This document shows positions 17,130 to 31,451 of a stretch of 32,043 bases of DNA, one piece after another. Position 1 is the stretch's first letter; each line of letters opens with the position of its first letter. The position numbers and the translations under genes are program-made. Origin of the DNA: Armatimonadota bacterium (GTDB taxonomy: Bacteria > Armatimonadota > UBA5829 > DTJY01); NCBI GenBank assembly GCA_033808695.1, contig JAPXND010000001.1, forward strand, positions 20,855 through 52,897, given 5' to 3'. The notes beneath the pieces are model-generated. The model was not told where the DNA came from and ran no database searches. It was given only the letters and a program-made list of their open reading frames with translations.

Positions 17130-19022
17130 ATGAAGAATATCATCATAGGAACTGCCGGGCATGTTGACCATGGCAAAACAACTTTGATTAAGATGCTTAC
17201 GGGAATAAATACAGACAGGCTGCAGGAAGAGCAAGAGCGCGGCATGACAATTGATATAGGTTTTGCATATCTTACGCTTCCAAATGGACAGAAGGTAAGC
17301 ATAATAGATGTACCTGGCCATGAACGGTTCATCAAGAACATGCTTGCCGGCGCCGGAGGTGTGGACGCTGCACTTTTAGTGATTGCTGCAGATGAATCAG
17401 TTATGCCTCAGACTATTGAGCATATGGAGATTCTTAGCCTGCTTGAGATTAAGCGTGGAGTAATTGCTTTAACTAAAGCTGATATGGTTGATGAAGAATG
17501 GTTAGCATTAGCAAAACAAGATGTGCGTAAAGCAATGAGTAAAACCTTTTTGGCGGATGCACCTATAATCTCTGTTTCCGGAACAACAGGTATGGGATGC
17601 CAGGAACTGCTTTATGCCTTACAGGATATGGTATCGGAAATTGAGCAAAGGGAATCGTTTGGAGATTTTCGTCTGCCAATAGATAGAGTATTCACGCTTA
17701 CAGGATTTGGCACAGTTGTAACAGGCACCCTTGCCTCCGGTACCATGACAACCGGTGATGCTGTGGATATTATGCCAAAGGGTTTGAAATCACGGATAAG
17801 GCAATTACAGGTGCATGGAAAGAAAGTTGAATCTGTACAAGCCGGCGCACGAGCAGCAGTTAATCTTGCAGGGCTTGAAGTTGATGATCTTTCACGTGGT
17901 GATGTATGTGCATCGCCAGGTTCACTGCAGCCATCACAATTATTTGATCTCAAACTCAATCTGCTTCCAAATGCATCAAAGCCATTGCGAAACAGAACCA
18001 GAATTCGCTTTTATGTTGGCACATCTGAGCTGTTGGGCAGAATAGTTTTGCTTGATAGAGATAAACTATCGCCGGGTGATACATGTTATGCTCAATTTGT
18101 GTCGGAGACAATGGCAGTATGTGCAAAGAAAGATCGGTTTGTTATACGCTCCTATTCACCAATGACTACTATAGGCGGCGGAGTGGTAATAGATTCCAAT
18201 CCTAAAAAGCATAAGAAGCTTAATGATGAGCTGCTTGCAAGCTTGGATGCTGCAGATAGAGGAACTCCCAAAGAATTGATGGAAGAAAAAATAAAATCCT
18301 CTGTATTTGCAGCTGCACAATCTTTGATTAAGGATAATGTTGATATAGATGACGCCCGCCAAATCATTGAATCTCTTATAGACGAAGGAAGGGTCATCAA
18401 GCTTGGTGATGATTATGTTGTCCATATCTCTGTATACACAGGCTGCAAAGCAAGAATTATGGATTTCGTGAGTAAATTCCATGAGAAAAACCCGCTTAAA
18501 GCGGGCATTCCACCTGAACAGATACGTTCATCGGTAATGAAACAGCTTGATAACAGGCAATTCAATCTTATACTCAATCAATTGCTGCAAAACGATGATA
18601 TAAGGTCTTTTGGAAATCTTGTAAGTGAGAAAGAATTCAGTCCGATATTTACATCGAAACAGAAACAATTTGCAGATGATTTGACAAAGACTTTGATGGA
18701 ATCAGGAATTAATGTGCCATCGATATCAGATATTATCGGCAAAACAGAAATTCCGCCAAATGAGGCAAAAGAAATAGTAGAGCTATTATCTGTTAGAAAT
18801 GAAATTACAAAGATTAATGATGATATATACCTTCACAGCAGAGTTGTAGAAAGGTTAAAGACTGTGATTTTAAATCACCTTGAATCAAATGAAAGCATAA
18901 CTGTAAGCCAATTTCGGGATATTACAAATTCCAGCAGGAAGTATGCACTTCCCATACTGGAATATTTCGATTCTATTCGCTTTACTCGAAGGGTTGGTGA
19001 CAAACGAAAACTGATAATTTAA
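17130..19022 (+). CDS. selB: Selenocysteine-specific translation elongation factor
   Basis: The 630-aa protein has a GTPase domain (GHVDHGKTTL, DVPGHERF, TKAD) followed by the long winged-helix C-terminal extension characteristic of bacterial SelB. A GAGG Shine-Dalgarno precedes the start. Confidence 0.9.
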   Translation: MKNIIIGTAGHVDHGKTTLIKMLTGINTDRLQEEQERGMTIDIGFAYLTLPNGQKVSIIDVPGHERFIKNMLAGAGGVDAALLVIAADESVMPQTIEHMEILSLLEIKRGVIALTKADMVDEEWLALAKQDVRKAMSKTFLADAPIISVSGTTGMGCQELLYALQDMVSEIEQRESFGDFRLPIDRVFTLTGFGTVVTGTLASGTMTTGDAVDIMPKGLKSRIRQLQVHGKKVESVQAGARAAVNLAGLEVDDLSRGDVCASPGSLQPSQLFDLKLNLLPNASKPLRNRTRIRFYVGTSELLGRIVLLDRDKLSPGDTCYAQFVSETMAVCAKKDRFVIRSYSPMTTIGGGVVIDSNPKKHKKLNDELLASLDAADRGTPKELMEEKIKSSVFAAAQSLIKDNVDIDDARQIIESLIDEGRVIKLGDDYVVHISVYTGCKARIMDFVSKFHEKNPLKAGIPPEQIRSSVMKQLDNRQFNLILNQLLQNDDIRSFGNLVSEKEFSPIFTSKQKQFADDLTKTLMESGINVPSISDIIGKTEIPPNEAKEIVELLSVRNEITKINDDIYLHSRVVERLKTVILNHLESNESITVSQFRDITNSSRKYALPILEYFDSIRFTRRVGDKRKLII

Positions 19023-19102: not shown

Positions 19103-20527
19103 ATGCCCGCAGCACCAAGTCCTAATTTTAGGATCAAGATTAGAGTTAAATATAAAAACACACCGGAAATGTTTTTATCAATAGTAGAAGCAATAACAAA
19201 AACTGGCGGAAGCATAGAATCTACAAATGTTGTTAGTATTGAACTTAATGATATAATTCGTGACATTATCATAGACAATTCATCTTATGAAAATGCACAT
19301 TCGGCAGCAGAATCGGTAAAAAGTCTCTCTGGAATTGAAGTTATAGATGTATGCGACAGTATTTTTGAAATGCACACAGGAGGAAAGATAGAGATTAAGT
19401 GCAAATCTCCACTTATTTCAAGAGATGACCTTTCTATGGCATACACTCCGGGAGTAGCAAGAGTGTCTAAGGCGCTTGCTGAAAATCCATCTCTGGGGCA
19501 TACCTATACAATCCGCCGCAACATGATAGCTGTTGTTTCCGACGGCAGCGCTGTTCTTGGATTGGGAAATATTGGCCCGCTTGGAGCAATGCCCGTAATG
19601 GAAGGCAAAGCGATGCTGTTTAAGGAGTTTGGAGGAGTTGATGCATTTCCGATCTGCCTTGATACGCAGGATTCGGATGAGATAGTTTCTATTGTGAAAG
19701 CATTGTCTCCAGTATTCGGCGGAATAAATCTGGAGGATATATCTGCTCCAAGGTGTTTTGACATTGAAGAAAGATTGATTAAAGAGCTTGATATTCCAGT
19801 ATTCCATGATGATCAGCATGGCACGGCAGCAGTTGTTCTTGCAGCATTGATAAATGCATCTAAGATTGTTGGGAAAAAAATTGAAGAAATGACAGCCGTA
19901 GTCAGTGGAGCTGGTGCAGCAGGTATTGCATGCACAAAAGCGCTTATGGCAATGGGCATAGCAGATATTATAGTCTGTGACACCAAAGGTTCTATTTACG
20001 ATGGACGTAAAGAAGGGATGAATTCCGCAAAAGAATATCTTGCCAAAAAAACCAACAAGAATGTTAAAGTCGGTTCATTGAAAGACTGCCTGACTGGTGC
20101 AGATTTGCTTCTCGGCGTTTCCGGTCCCGGATTGTTGAATGGCGAAGACTTAAAGGTTATGGCTGAAGACGCAATTGTATTCGCTTTATCCAACCCTATA
20201 CCAGAGGTAATGCCGGAGGAAGCCATGCCATACATAAAAGTCATGGCAACAGGACGATCGGATTATCCTAACCAGATAAACAATGTTCTTTGCTTCCCGG
20301 GATTATTCCGAGGGTTATTAGATTCCGGAGCTGTAAAAGTAACTGGAGAAATGGTAGTGGCAGCTGGCAAAGCAATAGCTGCTCAGGTGGCTCCCAACGA
20401 GCTGTCGGTTGATTATATCATTCCAAGTGTTTTCAATAAGAAGGTAGCGCCTGCAGTTGCAGAAGCCGTCAGCAACACAGCAATAGATTCGGGACTTATA
20501 AGGGAATATGTGCAGAAAGAGTTCTGA
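19103..20527 (+). CDS. NAD(P)-dependent malic enzyme (oxaloacetate-decarboxylating) with an N-terminal ACT-like domain
   Basis: AGGAGG is upstream. The protein has a malic-enzyme N-terminal domain and a Rossmann domain (VVSGAGAAGIA) typical of short-form malic enzymes, preceded by a regulatory-domain-like segment of about 75 aa. Confidence 0.9.
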   Translation: MPAAPSPNFRIKIRVKYKNTPEMFLSIVEAITKTGGSIESTNVVSIELNDIIRDIIIDNSSYENAHSAAESVKSLSGIEVIDVCDSIFEMHTGGKIEIKCKSPLISRDDLSMAYTPGVARVSKALAENPSLGHTYTIRRNMIAVVSDGSAVLGLGNIGPLGAMPVMEGKAMLFKEFGGVDAFPICLDTQDSDEIVSIVKALSPVFGGINLEDISAPRCFDIEERLIKELDIPVFHDDQHGTAAVVLAALINASKIVGKKIEEMTAVVSGAGAAGIACTKALMAMGIADIIVCDTKGSIYDGRKEGMNSAKEYLAKKTNKNVKVGSLKDCLTGADLLLGVSGPGLLNGEDLKVMAEDAIVFALSNPIPEVMPEEAMPYIKVMATGRSDYPNQINNVLCFPGLFRGLLDSGAVKVTGEMVVAAGKAIAAQVAPNELSVDYIIPSVFNKKVAPAVAEAVSNTAIDSGLIREYVQKEF

Positions 20528-21676
20528 TTAATAATAGAACAGTTCAACTTCTTTCTCCATAGAACGGAGTTGAACTGTCAAATCTTCTACTACTGTTCTG
20601 CGGAGGAACAATGAATCGGGAAGACCGGTGTTTTGATGCGCGGGATTTCTTGCAGTGCCTACCATGAAAGTAATTCCATCAGCATTAATCAAATGCTCCA
20701 GAAGTGCAGTTGCTGCATTTCTTGTTTGTTCCGGGATGCCATTTTTCAAATATTCAGCTGCTCTGCTCAATGTCAGAATACCTTCCGTTACTAAATCGAC
20801 TCCTTTTAAATAGGCAATGGGAGGCAGATCAGAATCCAGATATGATTCATCCATCTCCAAATCCTGTTTTAGGTAATCTGCTACCAAATGTGATGTTGTT
20901 CCGCCGCATACTATTTTTGAATTTTCGTGCAACATGAAATCTCTCAACATTATTGGAACAATACTCCGCTCACTTGGAGGTCCTGTAAGTACCGTAACAA
21001 GCTTAGCTTTACGATACTTTACACAAAGAACGGTGCCGTCATCGCCAGGACTGTTCTTCCAGTATTCAAGCGCCTGGTCAGCTATTTTAGCAGCAAGCAG
21101 CTTGCAATCACCATGCGTGGATGGGGCATTAGCAGTAACAAATTCAAATATACCCTCTTCCTGCCAGCCCATCGCAAGTCCTGCACCAACACCTGCATAA
21201 ACAATTCCATCAGAATACATTACAATGGAATCTCCAGCTTGCATTCTGAAATACGATTCACGGATAGTTTTGCCTACTACATCAAGTTCATTGCTGGGTA
21301 TAACTTCCGGTTTTCTTCCATCTCTGAGCATTATAAAACTTGGAGAATCGTATTCGGCAATAGCAACCTGACCGGTATCATAAATACGTGCAATGGAAAA
21401 TGTGGAATAAGCAATATTGCGCCATTTGCAAACAGGGAGAGTAGCAATAAGTGATTCAGCTATTTCATGAAGAGAGAGATCACCCTGAAAAAGTCCGCCT
21501 GTGATTTCAACTGTAAGAGTAGCAAGCACATTAGCTTTCACACCGCTGCCTAATCCGTCTGACACAACAATGATGGTAGAATCGGGTGTGCGAACTACTT
21601 TGTATGCATCGCCGCATATATCTTCGCCCTTTTTATAAAACTGGCGAGTTGAAACATCCACAGCATATTTCTTCAT
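20528..21676 (-). CDS. SpoIIE/PP2C-family serine phosphatase with a ~170-aa C-terminal domain of unknown function
   Basis: The N-terminal ~200 aa has PP2C hallmarks (GDAYKV...IIVVSDGLGSGVKANV...MYSDGIV). Its start codon overlaps the stop of the upstream sensory hydrogenase gene (TAATG). Confidence 0.75.
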   Translation of the reverse strand: MKKYAVDVSTRQFYKKGEDICGDAYKVVRTPDSTIIVVSDGLGSGVKANVLATLTVEITGGLFQGDLSLHEIAESLIATLPVCKWRNIAYSTFSIARIYDTGQVAIAEYDSPSFIMLRDGRKPEVIPSNELDVVGKTIRESYFRMQAGDSIVMYSDGIVYAGVGAGLAMGWQEEGIFEFVTANAPSTHGDCKLLAAKIADQALEYWKNSPGDDGTVLCVKYRKAKLVTVLTGPPSERSIVPIMLRDFMLHENSKIVCGGTTSHLVADYLKQDLEMDESYLDSDLPPIAYLKGVDLVTEGILTLSRAAEYLKNGIPEQTRNAATALLEHLINADGITFMVGTARNPAHQNTGLPDSLFLRRTVVEDLTVQLRSMEKEVELFYY

Positions 21677-23403
21677 TAAGAAACATCCTCTGATTCTTTT
21701 ATTAAAGAAGCTAATTTATGCAAAAGTATTCTGGTTTCGCTTGTTGTTTCTCCAAGTATACCGGCAATCTCCTGCGCCATCCTCATCTGCTTTTCTATAA
21801 CCTGTTGTGCATTTTCCAGTGTTTCATCTCTAATCTGATCAAACCTGCTCAATCCTTCGGTAGATCTATTTACGTTAGACAAGATTCCAACAACAAGTTC
21901 TTCATCTTCCAACCTATACACATTAAGGCTGCCGCTTACATGATAATTTGGATAAGAAACAGTTTTGTTAGTTACTCTATCAATGGCTCTTGCCATAACT
22001 TTCTCAAAATCTTCAGGATCCATTAATGTTGAAAGCGGTTTGCGGATTATGCCCGGTGTGCATGAAAATATTGCTGCAAAAGAGGGATTGAATTCCACAA
22101 TTCTCATTGAGGAATCAACAATTACTATGGCATTAGGACTTGCATCAATAATCTGCAAGGCTTTCCGCTCTGCAACTTTACGCATCCATGGTATACACAT
22201 ATCGGCTTCTGCCATACCAGTAAGCACTGCTATTGCTTTATCTCTGCATGAACTATAGCCGCATGCACCGCAATTCAACTCATCTTCCGGGGAGAACTTA
22301 CCCGTTTTTGCCATTGTTTCTCTTATTAACTGCTCGCTGAACTCCTGCATATGTATTTCGTGCGGGCTGAATTCACGACGCAGGTTTACATGTTCCATGG
22401 CAGATAGAATTTGTAGTTCTGTAGATTTCTTTTGAGTGCGCTTTTCATGCTGAATGATACGGTTTCTGCGATAAAACACATCTCTGCCATCACCAAAACA
22501 TGGTCCGTTTATGCATCCTGAGGGACATAAGAGAGCTTCAAACAGTTGGATTGTGCTGCCACTTTTTAAGTTGTCTAACATCTCATATACTTCTTCACTG
22601 CCGGATACAACAGCAAAATCCTGCCTTAGCAGGTCTGGGTGCATTGAAGCAGCTTTTGCAAGTCCACCTTCTAATGGAAAAAGTCTTGCTTGAGAAGCCG
22701 GTATATCATCCATGTCAATAGCTCTAAGCTGATCTTTCTTTATATTTTCTTCTTCTATCCATATACGAAGCTCTTCAAAAGTTAGAACTGCATCTACAAT
22801 ACCCTGCAATTCAGGTTCTTCAGCTTCACCCTTTTTTGCAGCACAAGGACCGATGAAAATAACTTTAGAATTTTCCCCGTAAACATTTTTAAGATAACGA
22901 GCATGAGCAATCATTGGTGAGACTATTGGAGTTATTTTATCTACTGCCCAGGGGTTATACTTAACAATGAGATTTGTTATTGCCGGGCAAGCCGATGTAA
23001 CATGAGAGTGCGGTTCTTCATCCAAAAGTCTGGCAGTATCTCTTGCAACCATTTCCGCGCCAACAGCTGTTTCGGTTACCATTGTAAAACCAAGCTTTTT
23101 GAGGAGAGATGCAAACAGACCGCCGCCATAATCTGGGAATGCTGATACATAAGAAGGAGCAACAGAGGCTATAATCTGCCCAGCGTTTTTAATAATATCT
23201 TTAACAGATGTAAGATCGGATCTTACTTGCTTTGCTTGCTGAGGGCACTCTCTAACACAAGTTCCGCATACAATACATCTGCTGGAGTCAACCTGAGCTT
23301 GTCCATCAGAAAGCCTGATGGCTTTTACCGGACATACTCTAACGCATCTGTAACAGTCTCTGCATCTGGCTTTATTTGTTGTTATTATCCCCTGGTTCGG
23401 CAT
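21676..23403 (-). CDS. hydS: Sensory [FeFe]-hydrogenase homologue (HydS/HfsB-like): two 4Fe-4S domains, an H-cluster domain, an extra Cys cluster and a C-terminal PAS domain
   Basis: The N-terminus has CRDCYRCVRVCP and CIVCGTCVRECP ferredoxin motifs. The H-domain shows variant motifs TSACPAI (L1), GPCAAKKGE (L2) and CPSGCINGPC (L3). It is followed by CGACGYSSC and a PAS-like segment (IIDASPNAIVIVDSSMRIVEFNPSFAAIF). The start is probably M3 at 23403, behind GGTGG. Confidence 0.8.
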   Translation of the reverse strand: MPNQGIITTNKARCRDCYRCVRVCPVKAIRLSDGQAQVDSSRCIVCGTCVRECPQQAKQVRSDLTSVKDIIKNAGQIIASVAPSYVSAFPDYGGGLFASLLKKLGFTMVTETAVGAEMVARDTARLLDEEPHSHVTSACPAITNLIVKYNPWAVDKITPIVSPMIAHARYLKNVYGENSKVIFIGPCAAKKGEAEEPELQGIVDAVLTFEELRIWIEEENIKKDQLRAIDMDDIPASQARLFPLEGGLAKAASMHPDLLRQDFAVVSGSEEVYEMLDNLKSGSTIQLFEALLCPSGCINGPCFGDGRDVFYRRNRIIQHEKRTQKKSTELQILSAMEHVNLRREFSPHEIHMQEFSEQLIRETMAKTGKFSPEDELNCGACGYSSCRDKAIAVLTGMAEADMCIPWMRKVAERKALQIIDASPNAIVIVDSSMRIVEFNPSFAAIFSCTPGIIRKPLSTLMDPEDFEKVMARAIDRVTNKTVSYPNYHVSGSLNVYRLEDEELVVGILSNVNRSTEGLSRFDQIRDETLENAQQVIEKQMRMAQEIAGILGETTSETRILLHKLASLIKESEDVS

Positions 23404-23653
23404 AATCATCCACCCTTGGTAAAATCTGAGTATTGAAAAACTCTTCGGCCTTATCCGGAGTTACTCCACCATAAACCTTACCATGGATAACAACATTGGG
23501 CGCCTGGATGCAATTATCAAGACAAAGGTCTGCCACAAGACTAACAGATCCCACAAGGCTGTTTTCTTCAATGAGAGCTCTGAAGATCTTTAATGTTTTT
23601 GCTCCACCTCTTATATGGCATGAGCTGTCGAGGCAGACCTTTATCTCTAACAT
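23372..23653 (-). CDS. Standalone thioredoxin-like [2Fe-2S] ferredoxin (NuoE-fold), HfsA-like
   Basis: The 93-aa protein has CLDSSC...CLDNC and the tail GKVYGGVTPDKAEEFF, which is paralogous to the HydA C-terminal domain (IYGEVTPDKVDQFF) and to HydC. It overlaps the hydS start by about 30 nt. Confidence 0.7.
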   Translation of the reverse strand: MLEIKVCLDSSCHIRGGAKTLKIFRALIEENSLVGSVSLVADLCLDNCIQAPNVVIHGKVYGGVTPDKAEEFFNTQILPRVDDYAEPGDNNNK

Positions 23654-23656
23654 CTG

Positions 23657-25693
23657 TTATGACCCAACTTTCTCCACTTCGGGAGTTTTCTGAGCTGCCG
23701 GTAATATGGTTTCGTTGAAGAATTGATCAACTTTGTCTGGAGTCACTTCACCGTAGATTGTGTCTCCAACCATAACATTAGGACTCTTTTTGCATTTTTC
23801 AAAGCAGAATGTCGCTTTGAAATCAAGTTTATCAGAAACGCCGGCCTTTCTTGCCATCTCAGCAAGCTTAGTTAGTGTATCATAAGAGCCTCTAAGATAG
23901 CAATTAGTTCCTACGCAAACAGACACAGGAGTTTTTTCTATTGTTGGTTTTACTTCAGATAGTTGAACTTTTTCACCAGCAATACGTTTTCTTGGTTTGT
24001 AGCTTGTATGAAGCAACTTATGAGCTATAGGACTGTTTGGTTCCTGCAGGAACGTTGAATAGATTTCCTTAACATATGGATTGTCAGCCGCATTGTGAAG
24101 GGTTTGAATTGCATCACAATCATACATTATATCTTTTCTTTGCAGCCTTACATCCATATCGTTTGGCAATGGCTGTCCGCCACCGCCAACACATCCACCT
24201 CTGCAAGCCATTATCTCAACCAGGTCATAATCGGCTTCACCCGACTTGATTCGCTCCATTACTTCACGAGCATTTGCAAGTCCGCTTACAATTGCAAACT
24301 TCAAGGTTTTACCATCTAGTTCTACAGAAGCTTCTTTAATTCCTTCTAAACCTCTAACATCATGAAATTCAACAAATTTGTCACTCTTGGTAGAGGCTGC
24401 AACAGCCATTCTCAGCGCTGCTTCTGCAACTCCTCCGCTTGCACCAAAGATAATGCCTGCACCGGTTTTAAACCCAAATGGAAGATCCATTGAATCTGGT
24501 GGAAGCTCTGAAAGCTTAAGTCCCGCCTGATCGATCATTTTGATTAGTTCCTGACTTGTAAGAACTACATCTACGTCAGGGTTGCCATCAACCTGGAATT
24601 CCGGTCTTTGGGCTTCAAATTTCTTTGCTGTACATGGCATTATCGATACTAGGAACATATCTTCTCTTTTGATTCCCATTTTTTCTGTAAGATATTTTTT
24701 CACTAGTGAGCCAAACATCTGCTGAGGGCTTTTACAGGTTGACAGGTTCTGAAGATAATCTGGATAGAACTGTTCTGCATACTTTACCCATGCCGGGCAG
24801 CAGCTTGTAAACTGCGGAAGTTTCTTGTCTTCTGCAACACGTCCAAGGAATTCTGTTGCTTCTTCAACTGTTGTGAGATCGGCTGTAAAGCTTGTGTCAA
24901 ACACTTTATCGAATCCCATTCTTCTGAGGGCGGTAACAACTTTACCCATAGCATGTTCGCCGCCAGCGATTCCATATTGAACTGCAATTGCAGATCTTAC
25001 AGCTGGTGCAATTTGAACAACAACTGTTTTCTTTTCATCAAGAATTGCATTCCATACATCATCAATGGCGCTTTTTACTGTAAGTGCACCTGTTGGACAA
25101 ACTGTTGCACACTGTCCACAGAAAACGCATTCAACTTCTTTGAGTTCTTTTTTGAATGCAGGTGTAACTTGAACATCACTGCCGCGACCGGCAAAATCCA
25201 GAACACCGATTCCCTGTATTTCTTTGCACATACGAACACAGTCGCCGCATAGTATGCATTTGTTGGGGTCTCTTACCAGTGACTGATTGCTTGTTTCTAT
25301 TGGAAGGACCTCGTGTGTTTCATCAAACCTTACAGTTTTAATTCCAAGTTTTTCGGCCAATTCCTGGAGCCTGCAATTCATATTTTTTTCGCATGTCTGG
25401 CATTTACCATGGTGATTTGCAAGCAGCAATTCCAGAGCCATTTTACGAATACGCATTGTTGCATGTGTATTTGTACTAACAACCATGCCGTCTTCCGGCG
25501 GAGTTGAGCATGCAGCCTGAAGGCCTCTGCCCTCTATTTCTACTATACACATTCTGCAGGCGCCGTATACAGATAATTCTGAATTGTAGCAGAATGTAGG
25601 AAGATCAACTCCTGAAGCTCGTATAACTTCCAAGAGATTTTTTTTATCATTTATGGGAGTTTTTACTCCATCTATAGTTACATAACCACTCAT
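23657..25693 (-). CDS. hydA: [FeFe]-hydrogenase catalytic subunit of an NADH-dependent / electron-bifurcating type enzyme
   Basis: The 678-aa protein has a 2Fe-2S domain, then two 4Fe-4S domains, then the H-cluster motifs FTSCCPAWV (L1), MPCTAKKFE (L2) and EIMACRGGCVGGGGQP (L3). A thioredoxin-like [2Fe-2S] domain is fused at the C-terminus. Confidence 0.9.
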   Translation of the reverse strand: MSGYVTIDGVKTPINDKKNLLEVIRASGVDLPTFCYNSELSVYGACRMCIVEIEGRGLQAACSTPPEDGMVVSTNTHATMRIRKMALELLLANHHGKCQTCEKNMNCRLQELAEKLGIKTVRFDETHEVLPIETSNQSLVRDPNKCILCGDCVRMCKEIQGIGVLDFAGRGSDVQVTPAFKKELKEVECVFCGQCATVCPTGALTVKSAIDDVWNAILDEKKTVVVQIAPAVRSAIAVQYGIAGGEHAMGKVVTALRRMGFDKVFDTSFTADLTTVEEATEFLGRVAEDKKLPQFTSCCPAWVKYAEQFYPDYLQNLSTCKSPQQMFGSLVKKYLTEKMGIKREDMFLVSIMPCTAKKFEAQRPEFQVDGNPDVDVVLTSQELIKMIDQAGLKLSELPPDSMDLPFGFKTGAGIIFGASGGVAEAALRMAVAASTKSDKFVEFHDVRGLEGIKEASVELDGKTLKFAIVSGLANAREVMERIKSGEADYDLVEIMACRGGCVGGGGQPLPNDMDVRLQRKDIMYDCDAIQTLHNAADNPYVKEIYSTFLQEPNSPIAHKLLHTSYKPRKRIAGEKVQLSEVKPTIEKTPVSVCVGTNCYLRGSYDTLTKLAEMARKAGVSDKLDFKATFCFEKCKKSPNVMVGDTIYGEVTPDKVDQFFNETILPAAQKTPEVEKVGS

Positions 25694-25705
25694 ATTTAAT
25701 GCTCC

Positions 25706-27598
25706 TTATCTTTCAACGGCATCGAATTTGCATGCATCGTAGCAGGCGCCGCATTTTATGCATACTGCCTGGTCTATTACATGCGGCTGCTTTTTCTCAC
25801 CGGTGATTGCATCAACCGGACATTTGCGAGCACAAAGACCGCATCCTATACATTTTTCTGCATTTATTGAATAACTTCGCAATGCCTCACACTGACCTGC
25901 AGGGCATTTTTTATCAACAACGTGTGATATATATTCGTCTTTAAAGTGTTTAAGGGTAGATAGAACAGGATTCGGAGCAGTTTTGCCTAATCCGCAGAGT
26001 GATCCATCTCTTACAGCCAATGCTACTTCTTCTAAAAGATCCAGATCTTCAAGCTTTGCCTGTCCTGCAACTATTTTTTCAAGTATCTGCAGCATACGTT
26101 TTGTGCCTTCTCTGCATAACACGCATTTCCCACAAGATTCTTTTTGTGTAAATTGTGCAAAGAATCTGGCAACCTCTACCATACAGGTGTCTTCGTCCAT
26201 TACAACAAGTCCGCCGCTGCCAACCATTGCTCCAGCATTTTTCAATGAGTCATAATCAAGTGGCAGATCAAGATGTTCAGATGTGAGACATGCACCAGAG
26301 GGACCGCCTATTTGCACTGCTTTAAACGGTTTTCCTGTTAGAATACCTCCGCCTATTTTGAATACAACATCACCAAGTGTTGTACCCATTGGCACTTCTA
26401 TAAGCCCGGTATTTTTTATATCGCCAGTAAGCGCAAAGACCTTTGTTCCTGGAGATTTTTCAACGCCAAAGCTTCTGAACCATTCTGCCCCATTTAGTAT
26501 AATTTTGGGGATATTTGCAAATGTTTCTACATTGTTTACAACAGTGGGTTTTTCCCAAAGTCCTGCCTGAGCAGGGAACGGCGGTTTAGGGCGAGGCATA
26601 CCTCTCCTACCTTCGATAGAGTTTATAAGAGCTGTCTCTTCACCACAAACAAATGCACCTGCACCTTCTTTGATGTGTATATCAAACGAGAATGCACCGC
26701 CTAATATTTTGCTGCCAAGCAGGTTTGCTTCTTCGGCTTGTGCAATAGCAACTCTAAGTCTTTCAATTGCAAGCGGATACTCTGCTCTTACATAGATATA
26801 TCCTTCATCTGCACCGATTGCATAACCGGCTATAACCATGCCTTCCAACAGTGCGTGAGGATTACCTTCCATAATGCTTTCATCCATAAATGCACCAGGG
26901 TCGCCTTCATCAGCATTGCAAACAACATACTTCTTAGCATTTTGAACCTTTTGCGTTAGTTCCCATTTTCTTCCTGTAGGAAATCCGCCGCCGCCACGAC
27001 CTCTTAAGCCAGATTCTTTGACTTCTGCAACAACAGCTTCCGGCGTAAGACCGAAAATTGCTTCTGCAAGAGCTCTGTATCCATCTTGAGAGATATATTC
27101 ACGAATATCTGACGGTTCTATTATCCCTGAGTCTGCCAGAACAATATTAACCTGATCTACATAAAATGGAATTTCATCTTTCTTTTCAAATGTTTTTCCA
27201 GTAACTGCATCTTTATATAGGAGTCTGTCAACTATACTTCCATTGATTATAGTTTGATCAACTATTTCGGCTGCATCTTCGGGGGCAACATGAACATACA
27301 TGATATCTGCCGGGAGTATTCTTACAATTGGACCTACCTGGCAGAAACCGGGGCATCCACTGTATCCAAGTTTTACATTGGATTCATTCTTATTATCAAG
27401 AAAATCTACCAACAAAGGTATATCCTTTTTTTCCATTTCTGATTTAAGCGCTGCATATATTTCCGGAGCGCCATTAGCCATGCATCCGGTTCCTCCGCAT
27501 ACAAGCACTCTTGTGCATCCTTTATTAATGGCAGACACCATCTTGTCTTTGAGGCTGACTAGTTCCTGCGGTGATTTTATTGCTGTCATTGTTTTCAT
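25706..27598 (-). CDS. hydB: NuoF-like flavoprotein subunit of bifurcating hydrogenase (NAD(H)/FMN-binding, Fe-S)
   Basis: The protein has an N-terminal thioredoxin-like 2Fe-2S domain, the FMN/NADH-binding core GGGGFPTGRKWE, a 4Fe-4S motif CGKCVLCREG and two C-terminal ferredoxin motifs (CIGCGLCARKCP; CIKCGACYDACK). Confidence 0.9.
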   Translation of the reverse strand: MKTMTAIKSPQELVSLKDKMVSAINKGCTRVLVCGGTGCMANGAPEIYAALKSEMEKKDIPLLVDFLDNKNESNVKLGYSGCPGFCQVGPIVRILPADIMYVHVAPEDAAEIVDQTIINGSIVDRLLYKDAVTGKTFEKKDEIPFYVDQVNIVLADSGIIEPSDIREYISQDGYRALAEAIFGLTPEAVVAEVKESGLRGRGGGGFPTGRKWELTQKVQNAKKYVVCNADEGDPGAFMDESIMEGNPHALLEGMVIAGYAIGADEGYIYVRAEYPLAIERLRVAIAQAEEANLLGSKILGGAFSFDIHIKEGAGAFVCGEETALINSIEGRRGMPRPKPPFPAQAGLWEKPTVVNNVETFANIPKIILNGAEWFRSFGVEKSPGTKVFALTGDIKNTGLIEVPMGTTLGDVVFKIGGGILTGKPFKAVQIGGPSGACLTSEHLDLPLDYDSLKNAGAMVGSGGLVVMDEDTCMVEVARFFAQFTQKESCGKCVLCREGTKRMLQILEKIVAGQAKLEDLDLLEEVALAVRDGSLCGLGKTAPNPVLSTLKHFKDEYISHVVDKKCPAGQCEALRSYSINAEKCIGCGLCARKCPVDAITGEKKQPHVIDQAVCIKCGACYDACKFDAVER

Positions 27599-28119
27599 TC
27601 TGTGCTCTCCTTCTCTGCAGCTTCTAGTGCATCAAATGCAGCATCAACCTTGTCAGCAGTCATTTGTCCGTAAACTTTACCGTCTACAACAATTGCCGGA
27701 GCTAGTGCACAAGCGCCGATACAGCTTACAACTTCAAATGTATAACGCATATCCGGAGTGGTTTTTTCATCGGGTTTTAATCCAAGTCTTTTTCTGATTG
27801 CGGCTATAACACCTTGATTTTTTCTTACATGACATGCAGTACCATCACAGGCTCTTACCAAGTATTTTCCTTTTGGCTCTAATGAGAACTGTGCGTAGAA
27901 AGTTGCTACGCCATAAACTGTTGCGGGTGGCAGATCTAATGCCGTTGCAACAAAGGTTAATATTTCCTCAGGCAAATATCTATATTCTGCTTGTACCTTT
28001 TGAAGTATAGGAATAAGCGAGCTTTCTGTGGCTCCATATTCTTGTATAATAGATTGAATTCGATCAAATTGTCGTCGGGCTTTGGAGCCAGCTTCTGATT
28101 GCGCTGCTACCTGAACCAA
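27595..28119 (-). CDS. hydC: NuoE-like [2Fe-2S] subunit of bifurcating hydrogenase
   Basis: A TTG start at 28119 lies 7 nt after a perfect AGGAGG and gives a ~174-aa protein. It contains CDGTACHVRKN...CIGACALAP and IVVDGKVYGQMTADKVDAAF. Its stop overlaps the hydB start (ATGA). Confidence 0.85.
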   Translation of the reverse strand: MVQVAAQSEAGSKARRQFDRIQSIIQEYGATESSLIPILQKVQAEYRYLPEEILTFVATALDLPPATVYGVATFYAQFSLEPKGKYLVRACDGTACHVRKNQGVIAAIRKRLGLKPDEKTTPDMRYTFEVVSCIGACALAPAIVVDGKVYGQMTADKVDAAFDALEAAEKESTE

Positions 28120-28148
28120 TTTAGGACCTCCTAATATATTTCTGAAAA

Positions 28149-28781
28149 TTATTTCTCTGATTTTACGCGGAATGATAGAGCAATTAAACCCCAAACAAGT
28201 GATTGGTTTTCTACAATTACATCATCAGGCACGTTTAATTTAGTTGGTGTAAAGTTCCAAATGGATTTTATTCCAGCTGAAACGAGCAGGTCTGTCATTT
28301 CCTGTGCAACATCTGCAGGCACAGTTAGAACTGCCATTTCTATTTTTGATGCTTTAAGCACACCAAATAATTCCGTAGTGTTTCTTACTTTTACACCATT
28401 AATTGTAGTTGATATTACGGCAGGATCGTTATCAAAAATCGCTGATAATTTGTATCCCGATTTTTCCCAGATTCCACTCCCCGCCAGCGCTCTGCCAAGA
28501 TTGCCGCAGCCGATAATGCAGGCATTTTTCTGATTATCAAGATCAAATAGATCTCTGAGCATTCTTATTAGATGAACTATTTCGTATCCAACTTTTGGAC
28601 GTCCATCGCTGCCCATGCCAAATAGATCTTGTCTAACCTTAACAGAGGTTATACCTGTTGCTTCACCAATTTCTGAACTTGTAACGGTTTCCTTGCCTTC
28701 TTTTTGAAATGCTTCAAGCACTTCAAGATACAGCTCCAAACGTACTATGGAGGCTCTTGAAAATCTTTTTAATTTTAGCAT
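28149..28781 (-). CDS. rex: Redox-sensing transcriptional repressor Rex
   Basis: The 210-aa protein has a winged-helix N-terminus (VRLELYLEVLEAFQKEGKETVTSSEIGEATGITSVKVRQDL) and a Rossmann NADH-binding domain (CIIGCGNLGRALAG). GGAG precedes the start. Confidence 0.9.
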   Translation of the reverse strand: MLKLKRFSRASIVRLELYLEVLEAFQKEGKETVTSSEIGEATGITSVKVRQDLFGMGSDGRPKVGYEIVHLIRMLRDLFDLDNQKNACIIGCGNLGRALAGSGIWEKSGYKLSAIFDNDPAVISTTINGVKVRNTTELFGVLKASKIEMAVLTVPADVAQEMTDLLVSAGIKSIWNFTPTKLNVPDDVIVENQSLVWGLIALSFRVKSEK

Positions 28782-28803
28782 AAATATTCTCCATTTATAT
28801 TTG

Positions 28804-28821
28804 TTGTTAATCTTTTAACAA
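28804..28821. promoter_or_regulatory. Rex operator: perfect palindrome TTGTTAA-TCTT-TTAACAA
   Basis: The 18-bp site matches the clostridial-type Rex box TTGTTAA-N4-TTAACAA. It lies between the predicted -10 of the rex-hydCBA promoter and the rex Shine-Dalgarno. Confidence 0.65.
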
Positions 28822-28824
28822 TTT

Positions 28825-28853
28825 ATTTTACTCTTATTGGAAACATATGTCAA
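28825..28853 (-). promoter_or_regulatory. sigma70-type promoter of the rex-hydCBA operon (TTGACA - 17 nt - TAAAAT on the minus strand)
   Basis: The reverse complement of 28822..28870 reads ...TTGACAtatgtttccaataagagTAAAAT..., with the Rex box immediately downstream. Confidence 0.5.
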
Positions 28854-30130: not shown

Positions 30131-30347
30131 TTTAAGAATGGTTTATCGAACGTTTAAGCAGGCAATGAATCTGCTTGCTAACGCTGAAAATAATCAAGAT
30201 TACTCTATATAAATATTGTAAACTTTTGAATAATATGCTTTATTAATTTATAATATGGGTAATATATTAACAAATTGACTTTTATTAAATCATTTTGAAT
30301 GTTTTAAGCATTTGCTTAAATCTAAAATGTTTGTTTAGGAAGGAAAT

Positions 30348-31451
30348 ATGATTTACAGACAATTAGGCAAAACAGGATTAAATGTATCACAGCTGGGATT
30401 TGGGGCAATGCGGCTCCCCATGATTGGCGAAGGTGAAAATGCTTCAATAAACAGAGAATTAGCTGTTCCTATGATCCATAAGGCATTTGAATCCGGAGTG
30501 AACTATATAGATACTGCCGTTTTTTACTGTAATGGTGACAGCCAGCGTGTTGTAGGTGAGGCGCTGAAAGGATGGAGAGACAAGATAATTGTATCAACAA
30601 AAAACCATTATTTTGACGAAGATGAGAAGGAATGGTGGACGTATCTTGAACAGAGCCTGGAACGGCTTCAGGTTGAGTATATAGACATATACAACCATCA
30701 TGGACTCAACTGGAACAGTTATGTGAATAATGTTAAACCAAGGGTAAGTAAATGGATGCACAAAGCCAAAGAGCAGGGGCTGATAAAGCATATATGCGGA
30801 TCATTCCATGACAACAACGAGGCTCTGGTCAATATTATAAACGATGGGTATCTGGAAACAATAACCCTTCAATACAATATGCTGGATAGACAGCTTGAAG
30901 AAGGAATTGCGCTAGCACATGAAAAAGGCATCGGCATTATTGTAATGGGTCCGGTGGCTGGCGGTAGACTCGGGGCAACTAGTGACGTATTAACACAATT
31001 GATACCAGCAGTTAAGAAAGTTCCGGAACTTGCTTTAAGATTTGTTCTATCTAATCCAAATGTTACAATTGCTCTTTCAGGTATGAGCACAATGCAACAA
31101 GTAGAGGAAAACGTTGCTACAGCAGCTGATCCCGTAAGCTTGACCGAAGAAGACCAGCAGGCAATTAATGAGCATCTTGTAAGATTGAGAAATATGGCTG
31201 ATTTGTATTGCTCCGGATGCGGATATTGTATGCCATGCGCAAATGATGTAAACATTCCACATATTTTTGCTACATACAATACTGCAAGGGTGTATGGATT
31301 ATGGGAGTCTGCAAGAAATGCATATGCAAAGATTGGCGATGCAAAATCGGCTAAGGCATGCATCCAATGTGGACAGTGCGAAGAAAAATGCCCTCAAAAC
31401 ATCAAAATTATGGAGGAACTGGAAAAGGCGCATGAGGCGCTTTCCAGCTGA
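30348..31451 (+). CDS. Aldo/keto reductase-family oxidoreductase with a C-terminal Cys-rich 4Fe-4S ferredoxin-like domain
   Basis: The AKR fold occupies the N-terminal ~290 aa (GKTGLNVSQLGFGAMRL...YIDTAVFY). The C-terminus carries CSGCGYCMPCANDV and CIQCGQCEEKCPQN. The AGGAAGG Shine-Dalgarno is upstream. Confidence 0.8.
   Translation: MIYRQLGKTGLNVSQLGFGAMRLPMIGEGENASINRELAVPMIHKAFESGVNYIDTAVFYCNGDSQRVVGEALKGWRDKIIVSTKNHYFDEDEKEWWTYLEQSLERLQVEYIDIYNHHGLNWNSYVNNVKPRVSKWMHKAKEQGLIKHICGSFHDNNEALVNIINDGYLETITLQYNMLDRQLEEGIALAHEKGIGIIVMGPVAGGRLGATSDVLTQLIPAVKKVPELALRFVLSNPNVTIALSGMSTMQQVEENVATAADPVSLTEEDQQAINEHLVRLRNMADLYCSGCGYCMPCANDVNIPHIFATYNTARVYGLWESARNAYAKIGDAKSAKACIQCGQCEEKCPQNIKIMEELEKAHEALSS

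Follow-up and report, generated by a model that had tools for sequence, protein, structure and literature searches.

The DNA analyzed here is a 32,043-nucleotide stretch from the genome of an uncultured Armatimonadota bacterium (assembly GCA_033808695.1, contig JAPXND010000001.1, positions 20,855 to 52,897 of the forward strand), which is referred to as the window and from whose first letter all positions are counted. Seven consecutive open reading frames (ORFs) occupy its minus strand from 28781 to 20528 in the order rex, hydC, hydB, hydA, a 93-aa [2Fe-2S] protein gene, hydS and a PP2C phosphatase gene. The locus is probably a Rex-autoregulated operon in which an electron-bifurcating-type hydrogenase, HydABC, is combined with an hfsABC-type cassette ([2Fe-2S] protein, PAS-bearing HydS and PP2C phosphatase) that would function in the regulatory circuit proposed below.

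Layout and expected transcription of the locus

Genes were called by Pfam and NCBIfam searches of the window ORFs and the junctions were read from the sequence. Promoters were searched on both strands between 19000 and 30000 (11 kb) and scored out of 12. The following features were obtained:

28825..28853, minus strand: predicted sigma-70-type promoter TTGACA-17 nt-TAAAAT upstream of rex (11/12, best match on either strand in the 11 kb)
28804..28821, palindromic, no strand assigned: predicted Rex operator TTGTTAA-N4-TTAACAA, a perfect 18-bp palindrome 3 nt downstream of the -10 element
28149..28781, minus strand: rex, redox-sensing (NADH/NAD+) repressor, 210 aa (Put_DNA-bind_N and CoA_binding; NCBIfam NF003994, 204 bits, cutoff 130)
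27595..28119, minus strand: hydC, NuoE-like [2Fe-2S] subunit, 174 aa (2Fe-2S_thioredx, E=2e-49)
25706..27598, minus strand: hydB, flavin- and NADH-binding subunit, 630 aa (Complex1_51K, NADH_4Fe-4S, N-terminal 2Fe-2S and C-terminal 2x Fer4, i.e. 2x[4Fe-4S])
23657..25693, minus strand: hydA, catalytic [FeFe]-hydrogenase subunit, 678 aa (Fe_hyd_lg_C, E=3e-98; Fe_hyd_SSU; NuoG-like N-terminus; C-terminal 2Fe-2S_thioredx)
23372..23653, minus strand: stand-alone thioredoxin-like [2Fe-2S] protein, HfsA-like, 93 aa (2Fe-2S_thioredx, E=6e-9)
21676..23409, minus strand: hydS, PAS-bearing sensory-type [FeFe]-hydrogenase, 577 aa, or 575 aa if the start is at 23403 (Pfam and active-site motifs)
20528..21676, minus strand: HfsC-type PP2C (SpoIIE/RsbU-like) Ser/Thr phosphatase, 382 aa (SpoIIE, E=6.5e-15)
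20531..21007, minus strand: C-terminal domain of the phosphatase (residues 224-382, 159 residues), family-specific, Rossmann-like alpha/beta, confidently modelled and without a Pfam model

All seven ORFs were present in the order and at the coordinates given by the original prediction, which had been made from the DNA alone, and Pfam and NCBIfam assigned each of them as claimed. A 29-nt gap without overlap separates rex from hydC, whose TTG start at 28119 is preceded by AGGAGG 7 nt upstream and yields a protein of 174 aa. Gene callers on contigs with identical proteins list HydC with 174 aa and HydS with 575 aa. A 199-aa hydC ORF from the program-made ORF list, which starts at a TTG within rex and overlaps that gene, was rejected, since TTG 28119 has a strong ribosome-binding site and fits the 174-aa calls. 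The genes hydC and hydB overlap in ATGA (-4 nt), hydB is followed by hydA after 12 nt and hydA by the [2Fe-2S] gene after just 3 nt. This small gene overlaps hydS by 32 nt (hydS start 23403) or 38 nt (start 23409), and hydS overlaps the PP2C gene in TAATG (-1 nt). The sequence thereby confirmed the three overlapping junctions that had been reported (ATGA, about 30 nt and TAATG).

For comparison, one genome per species was scanned with an alignment of the PP2C protein and the best 80 loci (L001-L080) were examined; cassettes were gathered from the PP2C side, and all co-occurrence counts start from PP2C genes. An Armatimonadota relative, 79% identical, was added as L081. The same seven-gene order was found in three other Armatimonadota genomes (L001, L002 and L081). 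Within the seven-gene unit of the window, no minus-strand promoter match of at least 10/12 and no convincing terminator was detected. In L081, the 67-nt spacer behind the PP2C gene holds a bidirectional terminator with a 17-bp stem (L081 11154-11192), the sole strong one. The predicted co-transcription of the seven genes is well supported because there is one strong predicted promoter upstream of rex and none internally, and because the terminator of L081 stands only after PP2C. Together with the gene order conserved in L001, L002 and L081, these features favor the single transcription unit of the original prediction. The piece to which that prediction referred ends at 28853, the first base of the -35 hexamer of the rex promoter.

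The Rex operator was searched with a consensus taken from PMC6391272, and the palindrome at 28804-28821, of the clostridial type, is the only match without mismatch in the window. It overlaps the predicted transcription start and would cover it, which is the geometry of a repressor. When the regions upstream of rex from the window, L081, L001 and L002 were aligned, only the -35 element, the -10 element and the Rex box were conserved and the remainder was divergent; TTGAC of the -35 element and the -10 element are kept in all four Armatimonadota loci. The perfect palindrome at the predicted start and its conservation in this phylogenetic footprint argue for the Rex control that had been proposed for the operon. 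Across the 80 loci (1.2 Mb), 12 Rex sites with at most one mismatch were found, about half of them just upstream of rex, of the small 2Fe2S gene or of a hydA2-like gene heading the cassette (L002, L016, L023, L049 and L078). In Caldicellulosiruptor, experiments have established both repression by Rex and autoregulation for [FeFe]-hydrogenase genes (PMC6391272). As in the window, the 18-bp palindrome lies in the promoters of hydrogenase genes and of rex in Caldicellulosiruptor and Clostridia; the window differs in its half-site, TTGTTAA instead of the general consensus TTGTGAA, and in that its hydrogenase operon begins with rex (PMC6391272). A Rex-like site with two mismatches (TGGGTAATATATTAACAA) was also observed at 30256-30273, about 75 nt upstream of an aldo/keto reductase gene (30348..31451, plus strand) that encodes a C-terminal 2x[4Fe-4S] domain. 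This gene may be a second member of the Rex regulon.

Hydrogenase, sensory-type HydS and phosphatase

The domain architecture of HydABC is that of a group A3 electron-bifurcating hydrogenase, and the enzyme presumably has the corresponding activity. Over its full length, HydB matches two HydB structures of bifurcating enzymes, 8a6t_B (E=2e-242) and 7p5h_B (E=1e-231). HydA scores 771 bits against NCBIfam NF040763 (cutoff 765), and its best match in the PDB is Thermotoga maritima HydA (7p5h_A), which covers residues 6-656 and includes the C-terminal [2Fe-2S] domain. The H-cluster motifs of HydA are canonical (TSCCP, MPCTAKK and MACRGGC). HydA, HydB and HydC all correspond at full length to HydABC of T. 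maritima (7p5h) and of 8a6t, with the C-terminal [2Fe-2S] domain being of the T. maritima type. Compared with these complexes, the operon of the window adds rex and the sensor cassette, and its bifurcating activity is a prediction from sequence.

HydS carries 2x[4Fe-4S] clusters (2x Fer4, CxxCxxCxxxC motifs), an H-domain at residues 79-303 (Fe_hyd_lg_C, E=5e-48), a further Fe-S cluster motif Cx2Cx4Cx16C at Cys380, 383, 388 and 405 (PF04060, E=3e-10, residues 378-407) and a PAS domain at 419-494 (PAS_8, 27.1 bits, cutoff 21.8, residues 419-471), which is followed by C-terminal helices. The claim that the 577-aa protein combines an [FeFe]-hydrogenase H-domain with PAS was upheld by the Fe_hyd_lg_C and PAS_8 matches and by the active-site motifs. 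Cys141, 189, 295 and 299 align with the ligand cysteines of HydA1 in 8a6t (C300, C355, C499 and C503, CpI numbering). The second sphere is altered: the proton-relay C299 is replaced by alanine (TSACP), M353 by glycine (GPC) and M497 by leucine (LLCPSGC). Among 63 PP2C-linked HydS orthologues taken from L001-L080, the cysteine ligands of the H-cluster are invariant (63/63), as are Lys358 and the accessory clusters, all of which are intact in the window HydS. Glycine at the Met353 position is a near-universal hallmark (62/63), and the position of Met497 is occupied by serine in 40, asparagine in 12 and leucine in 8 orthologues. By these residues, the window HydS is a minority Ala/Leu variant.

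The predicted architecture of the window HydS is the PAS-bearing group C/M2f architecture seen in TmHydS of T. maritima (PMC8163306, PMC13104023). Both proteins have N-terminal 2x[4Fe-4S] clusters, an H-domain, a C-terminal [4Fe-4S] cluster and PAS (PMC8163306, PMC10055695), neither has the proton-relay Cys299, and glycine stands in place of Met353 in both. The Met497 position differs, as it is leucine in the window HydS, like in the group D enzyme TamHydS, and serine is reported for TmHydS; the host phylum, Armatimonadota for the window, differs as well. HydS enzymes show slow, sensor-like enzymology (PMC8924675, PMC8163306).

The 93-aa protein has four cysteines (7, 12, 44 and 48) that are invariant in 43/43 aligned sequences. 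It is better read as an HfsA-like partner of HydS than as a HydD subunit, because such proteins accompany HydS with or without hydABC and because the window HydA already has a fused [2Fe-2S] domain.

The PP2C fold and the invariant metal-site aspartates are present in the phosphatase. Its Rossmann-like C-terminal domain is not STAS-like and contains invariant motifs, GGT(T/S) at a beta-alpha loop, DLVTEG and NPAHQN, whose conservation hints at a site that binds a ligand or partner. When the whole library was searched with this domain, 795 representative clusters were returned. Among the best 150 of these, all full-length matches (about 380-400 aa) have the PP2C architecture with the domain at about 225-390, and the shorter matches may be fragments or stand-alone copies of the domain. 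By Pfam, no kinase, STAS, anti-sigma or sigma-factor gene was found among the window ORFs of at least 100 aa taken as genes, and no HATPase_c gene among the large ORFs of the window. A tblastn search of the window with 20 orthologues of a 249-aa RIO/APH-like kinase, which accompanies the cassette in other genomes, gave a best E-value of 0.33 and thus no homologue. The Pfam and tblastn results bear out the earlier statement that the phosphatase substrate is not encoded in the window, where STAS, kinase and anti-sigma genes had been noted as absent. In the literature searched, no paper was found that identifies the target of a HydS-linked phosphatase. In comparison with the partner-switching phosphatases RsbU and SpoIIE (PDB 5ucg, 3pu9; PMC5468089), the window lacks a nearby STAS substrate or anti-sigma kinase, and the regulatory domain of its PP2C protein is C-terminal and Rossmann-like, whereas that of RsbU/SpoIIE phosphatases is N-terminal.

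Distribution of the cassette and related systems

Members of the PP2C family were detected in at least 597 genomes, one per species, which belong to Armatimonadota, Bacillota, Planctomycetota, Chloroflexota, Atribacterota and a cyanobacterium. Nearly all of the best 80 loci show the order small 2Fe2S gene, hydS, PP2C gene, with exceptions mostly cut by contig ends, so that the co-occurrence of the hydS-PP2C pair, which had been put forward for a phylogenomic check, was confirmed from the PP2C side. In about 65 of the 80 loci, including more than 40 without hydABC nearby, hydS is directly preceded by the small 2Fe2S gene. The end of hydS and the beginning of the PP2C gene share 1-11 nt in 66/79 loci. 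A HydA2/HfsD-like hydrogenase of about 475 aa follows the cassette in about 43 loci (hfsABCD/Ruminococcus albus type). The genes hydC-hydB-hydA adjoin the cassette in 13/80 loci, rex lies within 10 kb in 19/80, and both conditions apply in 8. The linkage of the sensor to hydABC and Rex, which the original prediction had emphasized, is real at this locus but not special to it, as it recurs in Bacillota and other phyla.

The pairing of HydS with a serine phosphatase and a proposed H2-dependent control of hydrogenases and ethanol formation have been described before (PMC6776011, PMC5707799, PMC11837493). The pairing is also reported in PMC8163306, together with operons shared between sensory-type hydrogenase genes and group A enzymes. 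The closest counterparts are hfsABCD of Thermoanaerobacterium saccharolyticum and the hydS cluster of R. albus (PMC5707799, PMC11837493, PMC6776011), in which a small Fe-S protein, PAS-bearing HydS/HfsB and PP2C/HfsC are tightly linked as in the window. Rex is often nearby in these clusters, and H2-dependent regulation of fermentation and hydrogenases is proposed for them as for the window. They carry the ferredoxin-type HfsD/HydA2 (about 475 aa) after the cassette, whereas the window has no HfsD and its PP2C gene is directly followed by a convergent malic-enzyme gene. In R. albus-type loci, adhE and the 249-aa RIO/APH-like kinase gene precede the cassette; in the window, the cassette stands downstream of rex-hydCBA and without the kinase. 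The full R. albus-type order (L049 3679-12611 and about 19 similar loci) is rex, adhE (900 aa), the 249-aa kinase, a small 2Fe2S gene that is commonly duplicated (in about 14 loci), hydS, PP2C and hydA2. The logic proposed for the window is shared by the H2-sensing system HoxBC-HoxJ-HoxA of Ralstonia eutropha (cited in PMC5707799), in which a low-activity hydrogenase is coupled through a PAS-type element to a phospho-signalling enzyme that controls hydrogenase expression. That system belongs to the unrelated [NiFe] class and its output is a histidine kinase with a response regulator, in contrast to the PP2C phosphatase of the window.

Cassettes without an H-domain were observed in Planctomycetota/Pirellulales, Anaerolineales, Spirulina subsalsa and a Ruminiclostridium (L021 9164-16473, L004, L009, L010, L025, L069 and L053). 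The order in Planctomycetota and Anaerolineales is small 2Fe2S, a 169-188-aa PAS protein, HfsC-type PP2C, HydC-like, HydB-like and a NuoG-N-like Fe-S protein of 260-300 aa that has no H-domain; L021 additionally has a prismane/HCP gene behind these genes. These loci suggest that 2Fe2S, PAS and PP2C form a core device for which the hydrogenase domain may be one interchangeable input. A metagenomic contig with an identical PP2C protein (L082 8595-10001) has hydS called with 468 aa and its aldo/keto reductase and pantoate-ligase genes split, which probably reflects frameshift errors of the assembly and not biology.

Proposed circuit, alternative explanations and surroundings

By analogy, the standard model of this family can be applied to the locus, with NADH acting on transcription via Rex and H2 acting post-translationally via HydS, the [2Fe-2S] protein and PAS on PP2C. 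At a low NADH/NAD+ ratio, Rex would bind the palindrome over the transcription start and block the single promoter. A rise in NADH would release Rex, and all seven genes including rex itself would be transcribed. HydABC would then dispose of NADH and reduced ferredoxin as H2. HydS would bind H2 and oxidize it only slowly, as expected from a complete H-cluster site that lacks the proton-relay cysteine, and would pass the H2 signal on via its PAS domain and its Fe-S chain, for which the 93-aa [2Fe-2S] protein would act as redox partner. The PAS domain and the C-terminal helices would modulate the translationally coupled phosphatase, which probably forms a complex with HydS and would in turn dephosphorylate a Ser/Thr phosphoprotein encoded elsewhere and adjust hydrogenase or fermentation output as H2 builds up. 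We infer the complex of HydS, PP2C and [2Fe-2S] protein, the target of the phosphatase and a response of this enzyme to H2, and for this locus, as for the whole family, we infer an H2-sensor function and the 'two-layer circuit' that had been suggested.

Several observations weigh against this interpretation. Weak promoter-like matches (9/12) are present on the minus strand inside hydA, and an internal promoter there is conceivable. The operon itself ends without a terminator, because the stop codons of the PP2C gene and the convergent malic-enzyme gene abut directly (20525-20530) with a spacer of 0 nt. In the organism of the window, transcription may read through in antisense into the malic-enzyme gene. 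The equivalent of Cys299 is kept in 49/63 HydS orthologues (SSCCH or TSCCP; Ala in 8, Ser in 5), so that the PP2C-linked family as a whole is not marked by loss of the proton relay. As judged from the gene calls, neither a kinase nor the phosphatase substrate is encoded nearby. The literature still calls the sensor role of PAS-bearing HydS enzymes 'putative', and deletion of hfs in T. saccharolyticum also lowers H2 production (PMC8924675).

The hfs deletion phenotype would also fit a different role of the small protein, namely as HydD of a tetrameric HydABCD, with HydS being an extra catalytic or electron-transfer component and not a sensor. The 93-aa gene starts 3 nt after hydA, and its product shares 38% identity with the [2Fe-2S] domain at the C-terminus of the window HydA. 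In certain loci (for example L071), HydA is shorter and a small 2Fe2S gene stands separately behind it. We consider this explanation unlikely, given that a [2Fe-2S] domain is already fused to HydA in the window, that the small gene overlaps hydS, that it precedes hydS in many loci without hydABC and that the window HydS lacks the proton-relay cysteine. Sensors are often constitutively expressed, and the locus might consist of two units, a Rex-controlled rex-hydCBA and a 2Fe2S-hydS-PP2C unit transcribed from a constitutive promoter in the 3' end of hydA, by which the sensor would be present before the enzyme is induced. The promoter-like matches within hydA and the independence of the cassette in most other genomes, where it is sometimes found upstream of hydCBA, are consistent with this arrangement. 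It is rated as rather unlikely in view of the 3-nt gap between hydA and the small gene, the lack of stronger internal promoters and of a terminator within the unit, the order and tight spacing kept in four Armatimonadota genomes, and the position of the only strong terminator of L081 after PP2C.

The cassettes with a stand-alone PAS protein from Planctomycetota, Anaerolineales and Spirulina, which adjoin HydC/HydB-like genes and an H-domain-less NuoG-like protein, would also be compatible with a module that senses the cellular redox state (the ferredoxin/NADH pool) instead of H2. The [2Fe-2S], PAS and PP2C parts would then be the core, and the H-domain would be dispensable or vestigial. For the window this is unlikely, as the four H-cluster cysteines, Lys358 and the accessory clusters are intact and invariant, which points to selection for a working H2-binding site. 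A broader and doubtful idea is that [2Fe-2S], PAS and PP2C with the Rossmann-like domain are a portable redox-signalling device with interchangeable input (an H-domain in the window, none in Planctomycetota, Anaerolineales and Spirulina), which in kinase-less operons acts directly on HydABC or Rex and whose Rossmann-like domain is a ligand or partner site adding a second input. The Rex-autoregulated operon with an H2-responsive HydS-PP2C cassette is preferred over all of these.

The locus bears on the question of how anaerobes sense H2 and feed this signal back onto fermentation. It adds no new principle, and the same cassette is present in hundreds of anaerobe genomes. It does extend the cassette to Armatimonadota, a phylum outside the HydS papers cited here, in a particular gene order and a compact seven-gene, predicted single-promoter form with rex first. 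The usable facts are the conserved trio with near-constant translational coupling of HydS and PP2C, the unannotated Rossmann-like domain and the H-domain-less cassettes, and these side observations may outvalue the locus itself. The question of the PP2C target is no more testable here than in cultured model organisms; the comparative facts can guide reconstitution in tractable hosts, for example Thermoanaerobacterium or Ruminococcus.

Two further observations concern the surroundings of the operon. No tRNA (including tRNA-Sec) and no Rfam family was detected in the window, and a gene for SelB, the selenocysteine-specific elongation factor, is located at 17130-19022 on the plus strand, two genes from the operon. 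At 2-2353 on the minus strand, a reading frame of at least 784 aa that is absent from the ORF list runs off the start of the window, which is why the first 2.4 kb seemed to be devoid of long ORFs.

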